Part shown: positions 7,150-15,408 of the stretch, in pieces | Numbering within the stretch: the stretch's first letter is position 1 | How the letters are laid out: each line of letters begins with the position of its first letter | DNA from: a virus | Lineage: Duplodnaviria > Caudoviricetes | Virus record (IMG/VR): IMGVR_UViG_3300032321_000919 | Span: 1 to 29,897 of that record | Length of the DNA: 29,897 nucleotides | Strand: one strand, 5' to 3' | The notes under the pieces: generated by a model | What the model saw: only the letters and a program-made list of their open reading frames with translations | Database searches by the model: none | Told to the model about the DNA's origin: nothing | Translations under genes and position numbers: made by a program

Positions 7150-8085
7150 CTACCCGGCCTCGCCCAGCCTTGGAATGCCCCCCCCCCCCCCCCTTTGCCT
7201 ATCTTCAAACGCTGCGACGACAAGCTCGCGCGGCGTGGTGACTGTGCGGCTGAACTGGGCCGGGTCGATGTAGGACCTTTCCGCGATGCGTGAGCCCGGC
7301 ACGTGGCCTAGGTGGGCCGTTGCCGAGCCCGGCCTCTGGATCTCCACATCGGTGGCCGACGCCCGCCTAAGCCACTTCCAGGTGCCCGGCCTGATGCCTG
7401 CCCGCGTGACCAATCTTTTGAACTGGTCGTCGAAGGTCTCGTGGCTGGACAGCCAAGGCGTGACGAGCTGCCGCGGGGCCACCTCGAGCGAGACCCGCAG
7501 GGCCTCGGCAGTCGACGTGGACAGTTGGCATAGAACGGGCCGGCCGGTCTTTGACTGCACCAGGCTCACGGCCCCGTCGGGCCGGATGTCGATCACCGGC
7601 AGCCGCCACTGATCGCCCTGGCGGAGGCCCGTGTCCCAAGCCAGCCGAATGGCAAGGTCGAACCACGCCGACCGGCGGAGGCCCGTCTTATGCCACCGCT
7701 GGAGGCCCTGACAGGCCGTCAGAAGGGCGGACACCTCCTCCCACGTCCAGCACGTCGGAGCCTTGTAGGGCACGCGTACGGACCGTATGCGGCGTGTAGG
7801 GGGCTCGCAGAGGCCCTCGTCGGCTGCGGCCCGCCAAAGGGCGAGGATGCCCACTTTTTTGCTGCGGACGGTCTCGGGCACGACCCCGGAGGCGGCATAG
7901 TCCCGAAGCCACGCCGAGACGCTGGCCTCGTCGAGTTCGACGAGCAGCACAGGGTGGCCGGCCCACTGCTCGAAAAGACGAGCCGTGATCTGGTACTGGC
8001 GGACGGTCTCCGGCCGCACGTCGCGGAGGAGGCTGTAGTTTGCCGCATACGCTGACAGCGTCTGCGGGCCTGTTTTGCAATACAT
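7150..8085 (-). CDS. int: Tyrosine integrase
   Basis: TGLR (R), SKTG (K), KWLRR (HxxR variant), HLGH, C-terminal Y (RSY); SAM-like core-binding N-terminus; adjacent attP. Confidence 0.92.
   Translation of the reverse strand: MYCKTGPQTLSAYAANYSLLRDVRPETVRQYQITARLFEQWAGHPVLLVELDEASVSAWLRDYAASGVVPETVRSKKVGILALWRAAADEGLCEPPTRRIRSVRVPYKAPTCWTWEEVSALLTACQGLQRWHKTGLRRSAWFDLAIRLAWDTGLRQGDQWRLPVIDIRPDGAVSLVQSKTGRPVLCQLSTSTAEALRVSLEVAPRQLVTPWLSSHETFDDQFKRLVTRAGIRPGTWKWLRRASATDVEIQRPGSATAHLGHVPGSRIAERSYIDPAQFSRTVTTPRELVVAAFEDRQRGGGGGIPRLGEAG
7178..7193 (-). repeat. G16 homopolymer (C16 on + strand) in the integrase C-terminal coding region
   Basis: 16 consecutive C at 7178-7193, encoding RGGGGG. Confidence 0.95.
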
Positions 8086-8310: not shown

Positions 8311-8360
8311 GCATCGGTCTACGGAACCGAAGGTTGCTGGTTCGAGCCCAGCGGGGTGTA
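8311..8360 (+). other. attP core: 3' portion of a tRNA-Arg(ACG) gene
   Basis: Anticodon arm TCGGT-CTACGGA-ACCGA, variable loop AGGTT, T arm GCTGG-TTCGAGC-CCAGC, acceptor 3' strand GGGGTGT-A; no intact 5' half; adjacent to integrase. Confidence 0.88.
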
Positions 8361-8445: not shown

Positions 8446-8697
8446 ATGAAGATGCCGGTAAAACTCCCACCGAATCGGAAGCTGTGCGGCACGGCCGAGG
8501 CCGCCGACATCTACGGGTGCTCGCAGAGGCACGTGCGGTTGATGGCTGACCGTGGCGAGATCTGGTCCCAAAAGGTTTCTACCCGGTCCATGCTTGTCGA
8601 TGCCGACGAGATTGAGCGACTTGCTGGCGAGCGTGACGGCCTTCGCCGTCAGGGCAAGCTTCGTGGCCGCCGCCCTGGCGACCGAAAATCAGCCTAA
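8446..8697 (+). CDS. Small HTH DNA-binding protein (Xis/MerR-like HTH_17); candidate excisionase or repressor
   Basis: GTAEAADIYGCSQRHVRLMADRGEI...V....IERL pattern; divergent from int across attP. Confidence 0.8.
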   Translation: MKMPVKLPPNRKLCGTAEAADIYGCSQRHVRLMADRGEIWSQKVSTRSMLVDADEIERLAGERDGLRRQGKLRGRRPGDRKSA

Positions 8698-8730
8698 AGT
8701 TCACGCAAACAACGGCCGAAAAAACACCTG

Positions 8731-8760
8731 TTGACAAATATCCCACAAGGGAATTATCTT
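8731..8760 (+). promoter_or_regulatory. Strong early promoter with operator-like inverted repeat in the spacer
   Basis: A-tract, then TTGACA-N18-TATCTT; TCCC-ACAA-GGGA in spacer. Confidence 0.75.
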
Positions 8761-8786
8761 CCCCGCCCAACGTCATGGAGGACGTC

Positions 8787-8924
8787 GTGGATCGAGTTGA
8801 TTGGAACCATTGGCTGATGGCTCTCGCCCTAGTCAAAGTTGGCCAGGATCTCGGGAGTGACTCGATGCTGGCGCGATCGGTGCATGACCTGCTTTCGATC
8901 GTGTTTGCTTTGTCTCTCAAATAG
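8787..8924 (+). CDS. Small 45-aa early protein (absent from ORF track)
   Basis: GGAGG RBS, GTG start: MDRVDWNHWLMALALVKVGQDLGSDSMLARSVHDLLSIVFALSLK. Confidence 0.7.
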   Translation: MDRVDWNHWLMALALVKVGQDLGSDSMLARSVHDLLSIVFALSLK

Positions 8925-8938
8925 CCCACAAAGGAACA

Positions 8939-9196
8939 ATGAGCATGGATGCCCATCACGCTGAGTACATCGCCGCAGCCTGCGGCCTTCACGAGCAGAC
9001 CCCTACCCGTCGGGCTCTCGACTGTTACGCCATCGGGGACCACCTCTCGTTCCGCCTGCACGGCTGGTCGGAGAGTTCTTACGACGACGGCCGGGTGACG
9101 GACCACCACAACGGCAAGCTCTTGATCGAGACGGCCACCGACATCGTCGAGGTCGATCCGCGGCCCTGGCCACTGGGCAACGTGTTGCCCTTCTGA
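8939..9196 (+). CDS. Hypothetical early protein
   Basis: AAGGA RBS; 85 aa; possibly SH3-like C-terminal half. Confidence 0.75.
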   Translation: MSMDAHHAEYIAAACGLHEQTPTRRALDCYAIGDHLSFRLHGWSESSYDDGRVTDHHNGKLLIETATDIVEVDPRPWPLGNVLPF

Positions 9197-9309
9197 ACGC
9201 ACAGGACTGGCCGCGGCAGGACGCCACGGCCGGAAGGATGGCCGTCGGAGACGGCAGCAGCAAGGACGCATTCATCCGCCCGCCAGCACGACGCGAAACG
9301 GGCTTTTCT
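9197..9309 (+). ncRNA. Candidate CsrB/RsmZ-like GGA-hairpin RNA with terminal intrinsic terminator
   Basis: Six GGA in 9204-9266, several in hairpin loops; GCCCG/CGGGC stem followed by TTTTCT. Confidence 0.55.
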
Positions 9310-9340
9310 CACCAGTAGCACAGTAGCAAAGGACGCAGAC

Positions 9341-10297
9341 ATGGGATTCAAGAAAGCGACAAAGGCACAGGCAAACCTCCACGCGGCGATTCATGGGCCG
9401 AGCGGAGCCGGCAAGACGTTCACCAGTCTCCGAGTTGGCACGGGCCTTGCCGGCGGCAAACCGATCGCAGTGATCGACACCGAGCGAGGCTCGGCCAGCA
9501 AGTACGCCGACCGCTTCTCGTTCGACGTGCTGGAGCTCGAGGACCAGACCATCGACGGCTACGTGGCCGCAATCGGCGAGGCCGCCAAGGCTGGGTATGC
9601 GGTGCTCATCATCGACAGTCTCTCTCACGGCTGGCAGACGCTGCTTGAGGAGGTCGAGAAGCTGGCTAAGGCCAAGTACAGGGGCAACACGTGGAGCGCG
9701 TGGAGCGAGGGCACGCCGCACCAGCGGCGGCTCGTCCAGGCGATCCTCAACTACCCCGGCCACGTGATTGCCACGATGCGGTCGAAGACCGAGTGGACGA
9801 CCGTGGACAACAACGGCAAGAAGACGCCGCAGCGTGTCGGCCTTGCCCCCGAGCAGGGCAAGGGAATCGAGTACGAGTTCGACCTGTTGCTGGAGATCTC
9901 GACCGAGCACATCGGCCACGTGATCAAGGACCGCACCGGCAAGTTCCAAGACAAGCTGATCGACAAGCCCGGTGAAGACTTCGGCCAGCAGCTCGCGGCG
10001 TGGCTCTCGGACGGGCTCCCGTCCCCTGTGGCGTCGGCGCCGACGCCTGCAAGAACTGCTGACGCTACCGGCGGTACAGGGGACGGCTCGCCTGTCGAGG
10101 AGCCGCTGGCCATCAGGATCGCCACGCACATCAGCCAGGCGAGCAGCGTTCGGACGCTCGGAAAGATCGCCGACCGGATCGACGCTCTCGTCTCCGAGGG
10201 CCAACTGTCGGCCGATGAGGCCAGCGAGCTGCACGACGCGGTGTCGCGTCGGCACGACGTGATTGAGCCGAGGGGGGCGGTGAATGGCGTGGCATGA
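9341..10297 (+). CDS. Sak4-like AAA ATPase / single-strand annealing recombinase
   Basis: Walker A GPSGAGKT, IDTE, Walker B IIDS, EYEFD, KDRT motifs; followed by an SSB-like gene. Confidence 0.85.
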   Translation: MGFKKATKAQANLHAAIHGPSGAGKTFTSLRVGTGLAGGKPIAVIDTERGSASKYADRFSFDVLELEDQTIDGYVAAIGEAAKAGYAVLIIDSLSHGWQTLLEEVEKLAKAKYRGNTWSAWSEGTPHQRRLVQAILNYPGHVIATMRSKTEWTTVDNNGKKTPQRVGLAPEQGKGIEYEFDLLLEISTEHIGHVIKDRTGKFQDKLIDKPGEDFGQQLAAWLSDGLPSPVASAPTPARTADATGGTGDGSPVEEPLAIRIATHISQASSVRTLGKIADRIDALVSEGQLSADEASELHDAVSRRHDVIEPRGAVNGVA

Positions 10298-10826
10298 CTC
10301 GTGGACTTCGATGAGGGCCGGGAAGAAACAACAACAGGAAAGGAACCCGATGGACTGGAACATTTCGGTAGAGGAGCCTGAGCAGGCAGCACCGGTCGGC
10401 ACTGAGCGGATGGACTTGCCCGAGGGCGTCCACGAGCTGCAGATCAAAACGGTGTCTGAGGACACCACGCAGCTCGTGCTCGAGCTCGCCCACGAGGATC
10501 GACGCTACTGGTGGGTCAAGGTCTCGCTCAAGAAGGGCCAGACGTGGGCGAGGGTGCTGGTGGCCCAGCTGGCCGGGGCTCTGGCTTTGTCGGAGCAGGA
10601 GTGGGCCGACACGGCGTCGGACGACCTGACGGGTCGCCGCGTTCAGGCCGAGATCCGACATAGGGCCGGTAACAACGGCCGCGTGTTCGTGAACGTGTGG
10701 AAGTTCATGGCGATCGAGCAGCTCCAGCAGGAGGCTGCTGAGAAGGCGAAGCGACCGGCACGGACGCCGGCGGCCAAGGTCAAGCAGGCGTCGCCTGCGA
10801 TCGGCAGCGACGACATCCCGTTCTAG
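10284..10826 (+). CDS. SSB-like protein (DUF669-like); alternative start at 10350
   Basis: LPEGVHE start of a beta domain; acidic C-terminal DDIPF tail; position after Sak4. Confidence 0.75.
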   Translation: MAWHDSWTSMRAGKKQQQERNPMDWNISVEEPEQAAPVGTERMDLPEGVHELQIKTVSEDTTQLVLELAHEDRRYWWVKVSLKKGQTWARVLVAQLAGALALSEQEWADTASDDLTGRRVQAEIRHRAGNNGRVFVNVWKFMAIEQLQQEAAEKAKRPARTPAAKVKQASPAIGSDDIPF

Positions 10827-11063: not shown

Positions 11064-11111
11064 CGGTAGGGCACGGTGCCCATGTTCGATGGTTTCCAAG
11101 GAGGGAATGTT

Positions 11112-11432
11112 ATGTCCGCGAGATTCATGGTGATGATGACGCTTGCCCTGCTGATGGGCGCTGCCACGGCCCAGGCCGAGCAGGTGTTCACGGTGACGAC
11201 GACGATCACTGCACAGGAGCAGGCCGAGACGAACGCGCGTACTGGCCGGATGGCTCACTGCCGCGTGTTGCACGGCCGGCGTGAGGGCGTTGGGTTCAGC
11301 TCGAGCTCGGCCCAGCAGGCGATCGAGTCGTGTTGTTTCTTTCGCGACGCCCAGCGTGGCCGCTACCGGATCGTGGAGCAAGGCGTGGCCCGCGGGCCTC
11401 GCGGTTGGTTCGCAGTGATCCGGTACGAGTGA
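11112..11432 (+). CDS. Secreted small CAP/SCP-like protein
   Basis: Signal peptide ending ATAQA; A..A...M.H, EGVG, GVARG..GWFA pattern resembling a minimal CAP domain. Confidence 0.6.
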   Translation: MSARFMVMMTLALLMGAATAQAEQVFTVTTTITAQEQAETNARTGRMAHCRVLHGRREGVGFSSSSAQQAIESCCFFRDAQRGRYRIVEQGVARGPRGWFAVIRYE

Positions 11433-11438
11433 TCGACA

Positions 11439-11592
11439 GCGGCCCGCCCTGGCCAAAGTGGCGTCTGCATCCGCCACATGGGTCGCCGAGCGGGAGTGGC
11501 GAGTAACCACCGCAGTCGAGGCTGGTTTTCATCTCTTTCCCGGTGACTCGACCGAACGCCCCACGTCACGGGGCCAATACACAAGGAGGTGT
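11439..11592 (+). ncRNA. Candidate structured intergenic RNA (multi-stem, possible pseudoknots)
   Basis: Five stems fill a ~160-nt intergenic gap; see finding. Confidence 0.5.
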
Positions 11593-13053: not shown

Positions 13054-13105
13054 TAGGCACGGTGCCGCTTCGACGCGGCTGGGCGGAATACAAGGAGGGC
13101 CACAC

Positions 13106-13694: not shown

Positions 13695-14523
13695 TTGGTT
13701 CCCCATGTTCGGCCGCGACTTCCTCGCTTCCACTCTCGGGTGGTCTGCGGAGGAGCGCGGCCACTACGTGACGCTGCTGATCGCCCAGTGGGAGCAGGAC
13801 GGGCTGCCGGCCGATCCCAAGCGGCTCGAGCTCATCTCGCCTGGCGTGGGCAAGGCGTGGAAGCTGGTGGGCGAAAAATTCCCGGTAGGGGGGGGCGGCA
13901 AGCGTCGGAATGTCAGGCTGGAGCACGAGCGTCACCTGTCCCATGAACGGAGCGAGCGGGCTCGTCAGTCTGCCTCCGCCAGATGGTCCGGGAGGGGTTC
14001 CGAAGCGGCTCCGGCGGGGGCTTCCGGCGGGCCGGTCGCCGGGGAGGCCGATGTCGATAAGTCGGCCGAAAACGACGATTCGGGATGCGATCGCATATGC
14101 GGTGGCATATGCGGCGGCATATGCGACGGCACATGCTCCAGCGATGCTTCCATGTCCATGTCTTATACACCTCCTTCTCCTCCCCCGCCTCCGTCTGGTT
14201 TGGATGAGGAAGCAGGCAGGGCATGGGCACAGCTCCGAGGGGCGTGGAACGCCGCCTGGGGCGAGAAACGGCAGTGGCGGTCCATCGAGCCGCCTCCGCA
14301 GTTCGTGGCAAGGCTCTCGGAGCCAGGATGGCTAGAGGAGGCCCTGACGGCGATCCCGGAGATTAAGCGAGGGGCGTGCTCTGGGTTTAAGACGCCCCCT
14401 ACCCTTTCGCAGTTCTGCGACAGGACCGAGAAGGGCTCGTTTGTTTCCCGGATGCTCGGCGGCGAGTTCACCGACACGGCCCGCGCTGGTGGCAGGCAAC
14501 TACGACAGGAGGTCACTCAGTGA
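13684..14523 (+). CDS. Replication initiator, DUF1376/YdaU-like N-terminus
   Basis: WFPMFGRDFLAST..W..EERG.Y..LL..QW...GLP.D...N.RL..ER motif; internal iterons. Confidence 0.82.
   Translation: MASSWFPMFGRDFLASTLGWSAEERGHYVTLLIAQWEQDGLPADPKRLELISPGVGKAWKLVGEKFPVGGGGKRRNVRLEHERHLSHERSERARQSASARWSGRGSEAAPAGASGGPVAGEADVDKSAENDDSGCDRICGGICGGICDGTCSSDASMSMSYTPPSPPPPPSGLDEEAGRAWAQLRGAWNAAWGEKRQWRSIEPPPQFVARLSEPGWLEEALTAIPEIKRGACSGFKTPPTLSQFCDRTEKGSFVSRMLGGEFTDTARAGGRQLRQEVTQ
14081..14147. repeat. Iteron-like 12-bp-period repeats (GCATATGC core): putative replication origin
   Basis: GCATATGC at 14093, 14105, 14117; GCACATGC at 14129; degenerate copies at 14081 and 14141. Confidence 0.8.
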
Positions 14524-14762
14524 CAGGACCACAGGCCAAGATTCTGGGATTCATCATCGACTGGATCGCCGCCCGTGGCTTCCCGCCAACGGTACGCGAG
14601 ATCAGCAAGGCCTTCGGCTGGAAGACCACGGCAAACGTCCAACAGCACATTGAGCGTATGCAGCGTGACGGTCTTGTCGCGCGTGAGGCGGGGATGGCCC
14701 GGACGTTGCGTGTCACGCCAGCGGGCCTTGAGCAGCTCGAGGAGCTGCGGCAGACGGCGTGA
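14520..14762 (+). CDS. LexA N-terminal DNA-binding-domain-only protein
   Basis: T..Q.KIL.FI......GFPPTVREI..AFG..T..V..H...M.R.G.....G.AR.LRV; no peptidase domain. Confidence 0.85.
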   Translation: MTGPQAKILGFIIDWIAARGFPPTVREISKAFGWKTTANVQQHIERMQRDGLVAREAGMARTLRVTPAGLEQLEELRQTA

Positions 14763-15359: not shown

Positions 15360-15408
15360 ACTCGTGTAAAAGAATCTGCACGATTGTCCACGTCTCAAGG
15401 AGGAGACG

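Follow-up and report, generated by a model that had tools for sequence, protein, structure and literature searches.

RNAs that sequester CsrA have been validated in Gammaproteobacteria only, according to two papers, from 2014 (PMC4333381) and 2020 (PMC7652899). RsmW of P. aeruginosa is described as an RNA of 120 nt with seven GGA motifs, three of them in loops, that lies in the 3' UTR of a 224-bp ORF (PMC4950607). FliW, a protein antagonist of CsrA, is reported from settings in which no sRNA antagonist is known (PMC7366521), and CsrA has been described as prevalent in Planctomycetota (PMC13443453). Some phages encode CsrA proteins of their own, as reported for 30 of 2517 phages (PMC7366521) and for gp28 of PTXU04 (PMC11879866); the latter paper, from 2025, called the contribution of Csr to phage life cycles untested. 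In the published literature covered, with most subscription papers outside its scope, we found neither a CsrA decoy RNA encoded by a phage nor any planctomycete Csr RNA. The text of a catalogue of 10,000 viral candidate RNAs contains neither CsrA nor Rsm, and its supplementary files 1, 2 and 4 may list the motif described below uninterpreted (PMC10690425).

The window, that is, the whole stretch of DNA analysed here, is a linear virus record of 29.9 kb, 92% complete, with HK97-type head, tail and tyrosine integrase genes. The phage family carrying the element is likely temperate, with planctomycete bacteria as its likely hosts; the terminase has no close cultured relative (best match at most 34% identity). 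The integrase, recognised by profile matches, is encoded on the minus strand (7150..8085), and all features that follow lie on the plus strand unless stated otherwise. An HTH_17 protein, either an excisionase or a regulator, is encoded at 8446..8697 and occupies the same place in relatives. The promoter scan returned a single sigma70-like site between 7000 and 12000, namely TTGACA-18-TATCTT at 8731..8760, which recurs in relatives and has an inverted repeat in its spacer. This repeat, TCCC-N4-GGGA at 8741-8752 between the -35 and -10 boxes, is also kept in relatives and, judged from its sequence, is perhaps an operator-like site for the HTH_17 protein. A LexA-type HTH gene was seen at 14520-14762, in the replication region.

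The first operon gene, ORF45 (8787..8924), encodes a small protein without family, conserved among the relatives compared, with the motif (R/K)(L/V/I)GQ(E/D)LG. It is followed by ORF85 (8939..9196), a small beta-barrel as predicted by a structure model, whose 3' UTR is the GGA-loop element. Comparisons with Pfam, PHROG and PDB sequences and by Foldseek gave no match to ORF85 at threshold, and the weak Foldseek neighbours of the model, which include SH3, Tudor and Sm folds, all lie above E = 0.001. Its family (relatives L538, L541 and L550) combines a conserved N-terminal segment with variable beta-barrel C-terminal halves. The genes 3' of the element have recombination and replication functions, starting with a Sak4-like AAA_24 ssDNA-annealing protein (9341..10297), in whose place relatives carry RecT/Bet-like or other genes. 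As a separate observation, the hairpin GGCACGGTGCC occurs twice (11070-11080 and 13056-13066; 0.09 copies expected), right after a stop codon and ahead of an AAGGAG ribosome-binding site (RBS), and is also found in relative L001.

The element begins at the ORF85 stop codon and spans 9197..9312 (113-119 nt in homologues). Its parts follow in the order AGGA, hairpin H1, AAGGA linker, H2, H3 (GC-ARGGAC-GC), A/C-rich linker, H4, U-run, variable spacer and Shine-Dalgarno (SD) sequence. Site 1 is the AGGA at 9203..9206, 5' of the first stem, and site 2 is the AGGAC loop (9218-9222) of H1 (9208..9232); the GGA is present at each in 74 of 75 copies, GGA counts being partly pattern-selected. Homologue comparison places site 3 in the AAGGA linker (ANGGA; 9234..9238), and H2 (9241..9255), drawn from covariation, exposes site 4 as a GGA loop (9247-9249). 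The mini-hairpin H3 (9260..9269) holds site 5 in the hexaloop GC-AAGGAC-GC. This is the site closest to the SELEX-derived CsrA consensus, given as RUACARGGAUGU in PMC7652899, which its loop resembles. The H3 pattern GCA.GGA.GC occurs in 75 of 75 copies, partly because the search patterns selected for it. Folding and homologues define H4 (9278..9307) as a terminator-like hairpin with an internal loop, an apical GC-ACGAC-GC and a short U-run at 9304-9307. The array repeat recurs in the SD of the Sak4-like gene, AAAGGACGC at 9328..9336, as was seen when downstream starts were compared. Each element holds five to six usable GGA sites; the first G of the GGA at 9232 is a conserved stem base (CG in 73 and UG in 2 of 75 copies).

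RNAfold gave the element -47.1 kcal/mol, with a z of -2.06. Its raw GGA density is not unusual, as six GGA also arose in 2.9% of 1000 shuffles and comparable densities occur elsewhere in the genome, with six in at most 65 nt at 10303-10375 and seven at 14137-14192 on the minus strand. The display of at least three GGA in hairpin loops was found in 0.3% of shuffles and in 2 of 2980 segments of the genome, which overlap each other and are both the element itself.

Loci for comparison were collected with flanking proteins (80 + 47), a mid-element pattern (83), a 3'-half pattern (110) and the attP sequence (120). A covariance model with 35 training copies was run on 83 sources, consisting of the 127 protein-anchored loci minus near-duplicates, plus the window. 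At E < 1e-4 it recovered the window and 23 of 28 ORF85 loci and, among the AAA loci, 22 of the 26 closest and 4 of 28 that are more distant; 34 of those loci and the window were the training sequences. Two tests were independent of the training patterns: 78 of 79 distinct 3'-half matches are preceded, within 70 nt, by 4-8 GGA, and the element was found at E < 1e-4 in 10 of 27 phage-side att loci versus 0 of 18 host-side loci. RNAalifold on an unfitted MAFFT alignment returned 16 pairs, 8 of them with two-sided changes. In the model-fitted alignment of 75 distinct copies, which favours the modelled structure and contains related sequences, 90% of cells are paired, compared with 74% after shuffling and 24-41% when slid. 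Within it, H1 has 86% of cells paired and two-sided changes at 7 of 9 pairs. In H2, whose pairing was unselected, 100% of cells are paired, with two-sided changes at 5 of 5 pairs and 20 distinct arm pairs. Helix 4 was out of register in about half of the rows, and H4 was therefore folded per copy instead.

The conserved four-hairpin element is real; it was found at 75 distinct loci of phages, and its stems show strong compensatory covariation. Lengths of 113-119 nt with 1-nt indels show that it is non-coding, and two minus-strand shadow ORFs (8579-9271 and 9079-9351) were ruled out by 1-nt indels among homologues. The window has a single copy, as do 9 of 10 genomes fetched for comparison; the remaining one has a divergent short form. 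The element always lies on the sense strand, 25-69 nt ahead of the next start codon, usually preceded in relatives by an ORF85-like gene. It persists as the downstream gene varies (Sak4-like, RecT/Bet-like, phrog_19042 and others). Extended versions with extra GGA repeats at the 5' side were seen in L010, L098, L099, L108, L121, L125, L581, L592 and L650, and shortened ones lacking H1 in L042, L049, L057, L096, L107 and L115. A second, unrelated AAA_24 group (L055-L064) has 10-13 GGA upstream; L055, the sole member searched, gave no model match. Loci from a pattern scan of GTDB were discarded as chance matches to a pattern that was too loose (best covariance score 18 bits in 100 of 120, at most 14 in the other 20).

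The initial annotation had described the locus as a CsrB/RsmZ-like sponge RNA with six GGA (9204, 9219, 9232, 9236, 9247 and 9264), all of which are where it placed them. Its three hairpins, GCCCG/CGGGC stem and T4 run are likewise in position, and RNAfold reproduces the structure it had drawn. An enclosing GGATG/CATCC helix does form in the minimum free energy structure of the window, but its 5 bp can be reached in only 12 of 75 homologues, so it is incidental. The GGA loops are conserved in related phages, as the 75 distinct copies with their covarying stems demonstrate. The likeness to Rsm sRNAs held for these conserved, covarying GGA loops and for the size; by sequence the element is neither CsrB nor RsmZ, since Rfam searches in gathering and E-value modes, including the CsrB/C and RsmX/Y/Z/W covariance models, returned nothing relevant.

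Hairpins of the CsrA type were also found over RBSs in the window. ACGTC-ATGGAG-GACGT, with covarying stems, covers the RBS of ORF45 (8770..8785) and coincides with the start of the predicted transcript. TTCC-AAGGAG-GGAA (11094..11107) and CGTCTC-AAGGAG-GAGACG (15391..15408) cover those of ORF106 (11112-11432) and rusA, respectively; all three genes are predicted targets. A further hexaloop hairpin, ACAC-AAGGAG-GTGT at 11579..11592, covers the RBS of an HTH gene of 49 aa and is not conserved in most relatives seen. Across 11 genomes, a GGA in a loop closed by at least 4 bp occurs at 15 of 220 RBSs against 3.5 expected, a count that homologues inflate. RBSs were also compared by family, counting stems of at least 3 bp around an ANGGAN hexaloop. 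Such a stem stands at 31 of 43 distinct RBSs in the ORF45 family (null 2.9, maximum 9), at 15 of 15 in the ORF106 family (null 1.3) and at 4 of 4 for rusA, and is rare or absent at ORF85-type (1/55), RecT-type (0/51) and Sak4 (0/34) RBSs, the recombinases together giving 0/85. The hairpins of the ORF45 family have stems that are unrelated in sequence and covary, and the N of their loop is A, C or T. Given covarying stems, a fixed loop A and a free N, the RBS hairpins match CsrA recognition and not SD pairing alone. The involvement of CsrA is thus well supported by sequence, and its binding is very probable. ORF45, with the best-conserved hairpin of this type at its RBS, may be the key controlled gene.

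At the 3' end of the element, the folding energy of H4 lies between -10 and -15 kcal/mol in each of the 75 copies. Its apex reads AGGAN in 51 copies and A[C/U]GAN in 24, the window (ACGAC) included, and divergent copies such as L019, L042, L049 and L057 have a full ANGGAN hexaloop there. The longest T-run after H4 is 4-6 nt in 45 copies and 1-3 nt in 30. T occupies tail positions 3-5 in 62, 64 and 56 of the 75, the linker being only 17% T. With a run of no more than 3 nt in 30 of the copies, termination at H4 is probably partial. No sigma70-like site was found within 260 nt upstream in the 75 loci, the scan being confined to that promoter type; the nearest promoter-like site lies 267-916 nt upstream in 55 and none was found in 20. 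The SD of the next gene contains GGAC[GA]C in 59 of 74 cases and A.GGA in 66 of 74. Among AGGA-type SDs of 11 genomes GGAC[GA]C occurs in 18 of 238, a count that includes genes next to the element. Sites 1-5 are separated from the downstream SD by 65-130 nt, with H4 in between.

These data also bear on the transcript that the initial annotation had outlined. A promoter at 8731 agrees with the sigma70-like site and its recurrence in relatives, and, as to the GGA-hairpin genes postulated downstream, CsrA-type hairpins were seen over the RBSs of ORF106 and rusA. Of the proposed intrinsic terminator, the stable hairpin was found in 75 of 75 copies; a T-run of at least four is present in only 45 of 75, and a simple terminator scan made no call at 9278-9307. 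The suggested switch for lysis went too far, as no endolysin or holin was recognised among the 54 ORFs scanned; because the genes that follow serve recombination and replication, it should read lytic development.

The host lineage is identified by the attP core (8312..8360), which agrees without mismatch with the last 49 nt, at the 3' end, of a host tRNA-Arg(ACG). The 5' half of this tRNA is present in 74 of 120 metagenome matches to attP; an intact 5' half is absent in the other 46, and the site would seem, from these sequences, to be used by many different elements. In the host, tRNA-Arg(ACG) precedes ruvCAB-fabD-fabG. RuvB beside the tRNA is 65% identical to that of Bremerella cremea and 46-52% identical to those of nine other genomes, and the best Atlas clusters for a protein neighbouring the tRNA are mostly from Planctomycetota. 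Among 401 genomes of the order of B. cremea, which we take to be Pirellulales, the 49-nt core stands unaltered within a complete tRNA at the best 20 loci. All 31 genomes with the best att matches, the host being assigned through attP, have csrA in 3-8 copies; ten host CsrA sequences were inspected and all read as intact, and FliW is present in 5 of 5 host genomes. A phage-encoded CsrA was found neither in the window's own record nor in any of 50 phage records (0 of 21 at >=90% complete). In 151 genomes of the host family, the covariance model had matches in 30. In four of these the element stands on a phage-type contig, ahead of a Sak4-like gene; the other matches, at most 25 bits and mostly coding-like sequence, were rejected, and the 151 genomes yielded no homologue of the element on a chromosome. 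In the leader of one host csrA copy (L492 and L501, in the latter beside fliW), AGGAAGGA follows a GGA, as in the phage linker, which suggests autoregulation.

We lean towards the element being an RsmW-like 3'-UTR decoy for host CsrA. Transcription from 8731 would give an RNA of ~540 nt, part of which would end at H4 or be trimmed to it, as RsmW is cut from a 3' UTR. CsrA dimers would load on the five to six GGA sites of the array. As early transcription rose, free CsrA would fall and the predicted targets with hairpin RBSs would be translated; this titration would set a threshold for entry into lytic development, and read-through of the weak terminator would supply the recombination and replication genes. 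A decoy is favoured by the strong single sites on other genes, an array closed by a 3' hairpin and the close architectural precedent of RsmW, with which the 113-119 nt and 5-6 usable sites are comparable. Covarying stems carry invariant GGA loops, the 5' half accompanies the 3' half in 78 of 79 distinct matches, the closing hairpin is stable with a conserved short U-run, and the element is kept while the downstream gene swaps. The predicted targets ORF45, ORF106 and rusA are separate from the array, as expected of a sponge, such hairpins being absent from the adjacent recombinase RBSs (0/85) and nearly so from those of ORF85 (1/55), and csrA is present in the host lineage (31/31) and in none of the phages (0/50). 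However, no promoter-like site lies within 260 nt, and a U-run of 1-3 nt in 30 of 75 copies makes a discrete 3' end uncertain. The hosts are of the FliW type, with no chromosomal homologue in 151 host-family genomes, and a single short RNA may be too scarce against abundant CsrA with several paralogues. In Pseudomonas, moreover, the Gac/Rsm pathway is reported to turn on anti-phage defence, so that sponging CsrA could cost a phage (PMC11888443).

The decoy must also be reconciled with a position resembling that of a cis-acting leader, namely once per genome, in sense, and 25-69 nt ahead of a start codon that has the array motif again in its SD. It is possible, though we hold this more tentatively, that the element is a CsrA-responsive leader or attenuator of the recombination and replication genes. 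CsrA on the array and the H4 apex would then stabilise the interrupted terminator and/or bridge to the AAAGGAC SD, and these genes would stay off until free CsrA drops. CsrA is described as able to promote Rho termination (PMC4052769), and CsrA sites near a terminator as able to guard against RNase E (PMC5027483). Besides the fixed spot, control in cis would account for the GGAC[GA]C in the SD (59/74 versus 18/238 AGGA-type SDs genome-wide), the GGA loop at the H4 apex (51/75, with the full hexaloop in divergent copies), a weak U-tail that needs read-through, and the lack of an own promoter. It fits less well with the loss of the H4 GGA in 24 of 75 copies, window included, with recombinase RBSs that lack a hexaloop stem of at least 3 bp (0/85), and with sites 1-5 standing 65-130 nt from the SD beyond H4, whereas other genes use a single hairpin site. 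Decoy and cis attenuator can coexist and would reinforce each other. The hairpins might instead bind another protein, such as ORF85, which would then serve for antitermination or as an RNA chaperone where a nut/put-like site precedes the terminator; we consider this unlikely. An ORF85-like gene does usually lie upstream, and its modelled beta-barrel has weak SH3, Tudor and Sm neighbours (none at E <= 0.001). The order promoter, small genes, terminator and annealing gene also recalls the lambda pL operon. Sites of the nut/put type confer read-through of downstream terminators; the resemblance here is one of layout only. Yet the loops obey the CsrA rule (ANGGAN with N free), equivalent loops cover RBSs elsewhere in the genome, and the loops stay unchanged where the upstream protein differs widely in its C-terminal half. 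The GGAs could also be incidental to an ordinary terminator or stability element between genes, which would explain the matched GGA density elsewhere in the window and the modest folding z of -2.06; this is highly improbable given stems that change freely around constant GGA loops and a loop display unique in the genome.

A bolder extension of the decoy reading is that the lysis-lysogeny decision of these phages runs on host CsrA instead of a CI-type repressor, as a purely RNA-based bistable switch. We regard this as rather doubtful. CsrA would silence the first early gene and downstream genes through the hexaloop RBS hairpins and would tighten the GGA-capped terminator. Titration of CsrA by the array would then let the switch sense host physiology and infection multiplicity. 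No HTH_3 domain over cut-off and no S24 peptidase, as marks of a CI-type repressor, were found in five complete or near-complete relatives (G014, G023, G027, G002 and G008); the HTH_17 and LexA-type HTH genes could serve as repressors in these phages.

The phage family displays both halves of a Csr circuit in its sequence, with covarying target hairpins at RBSs and a covarying multi-site array, and is a candidate for a post-transcriptional phage decision switch. The element is also a convenient substrate with which the binding of the 3-8 CsrA paralogues of planctomycetes could be examined.

Compared with described systems, the element is apparently an undescribed phage RNA, which would act in the manner of an Rsm-type CsrA-binding array and falls outside the named families. 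It resembles RsmW, as described, in size, in its GGA loops, in its place as the co-transcribed 3' UTR, predicted as such for the element, of a small ORF of hypothetical product and in that no independent promoter has been shown. RsmW belongs to a gammaproteobacterial chromosome and its binding to RsmA has been demonstrated (PMC4950607), whereas the element is carried by phages, stands within an operon ahead of a further gene and matches nothing in Rfam. With CsrB/CsrC and RsmX/RsmY/RsmZ, reported as 100-400 nt long, it shares short hairpins exposing (A)NGGA and a 3' terminator-like hairpin (PMC7366521). Those RNAs have their own GacA/UvrY-type promoters, whereas the element has no nearby promoter, a weak U-tail and a GGA-type loop capping its last hairpin. 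TwoAYGGAY and Bacillaceae-1 are, like it, predicted and unvalidated CsrA-binding RNAs outside Gammaproteobacteria, according to PMC4333381, but have two sites each and another structure, and the element has no Rfam match to them. The 5' UTR of Salmonella fimAICDHF is likewise described as a non-translated mRNA segment whose several CsrA sites titrate the protein and so control other genes (PMC13501541); it is the 5' leader of a chromosomal fimbrial operon, whereas the element is intercistronic and in a phage. Phages that encode CsrA proteins similarly engage the Csr system, but they add a repressor protein, whereas the phages described here have, in place of a CsrA gene, binding sites and a putative antagonist RNA.
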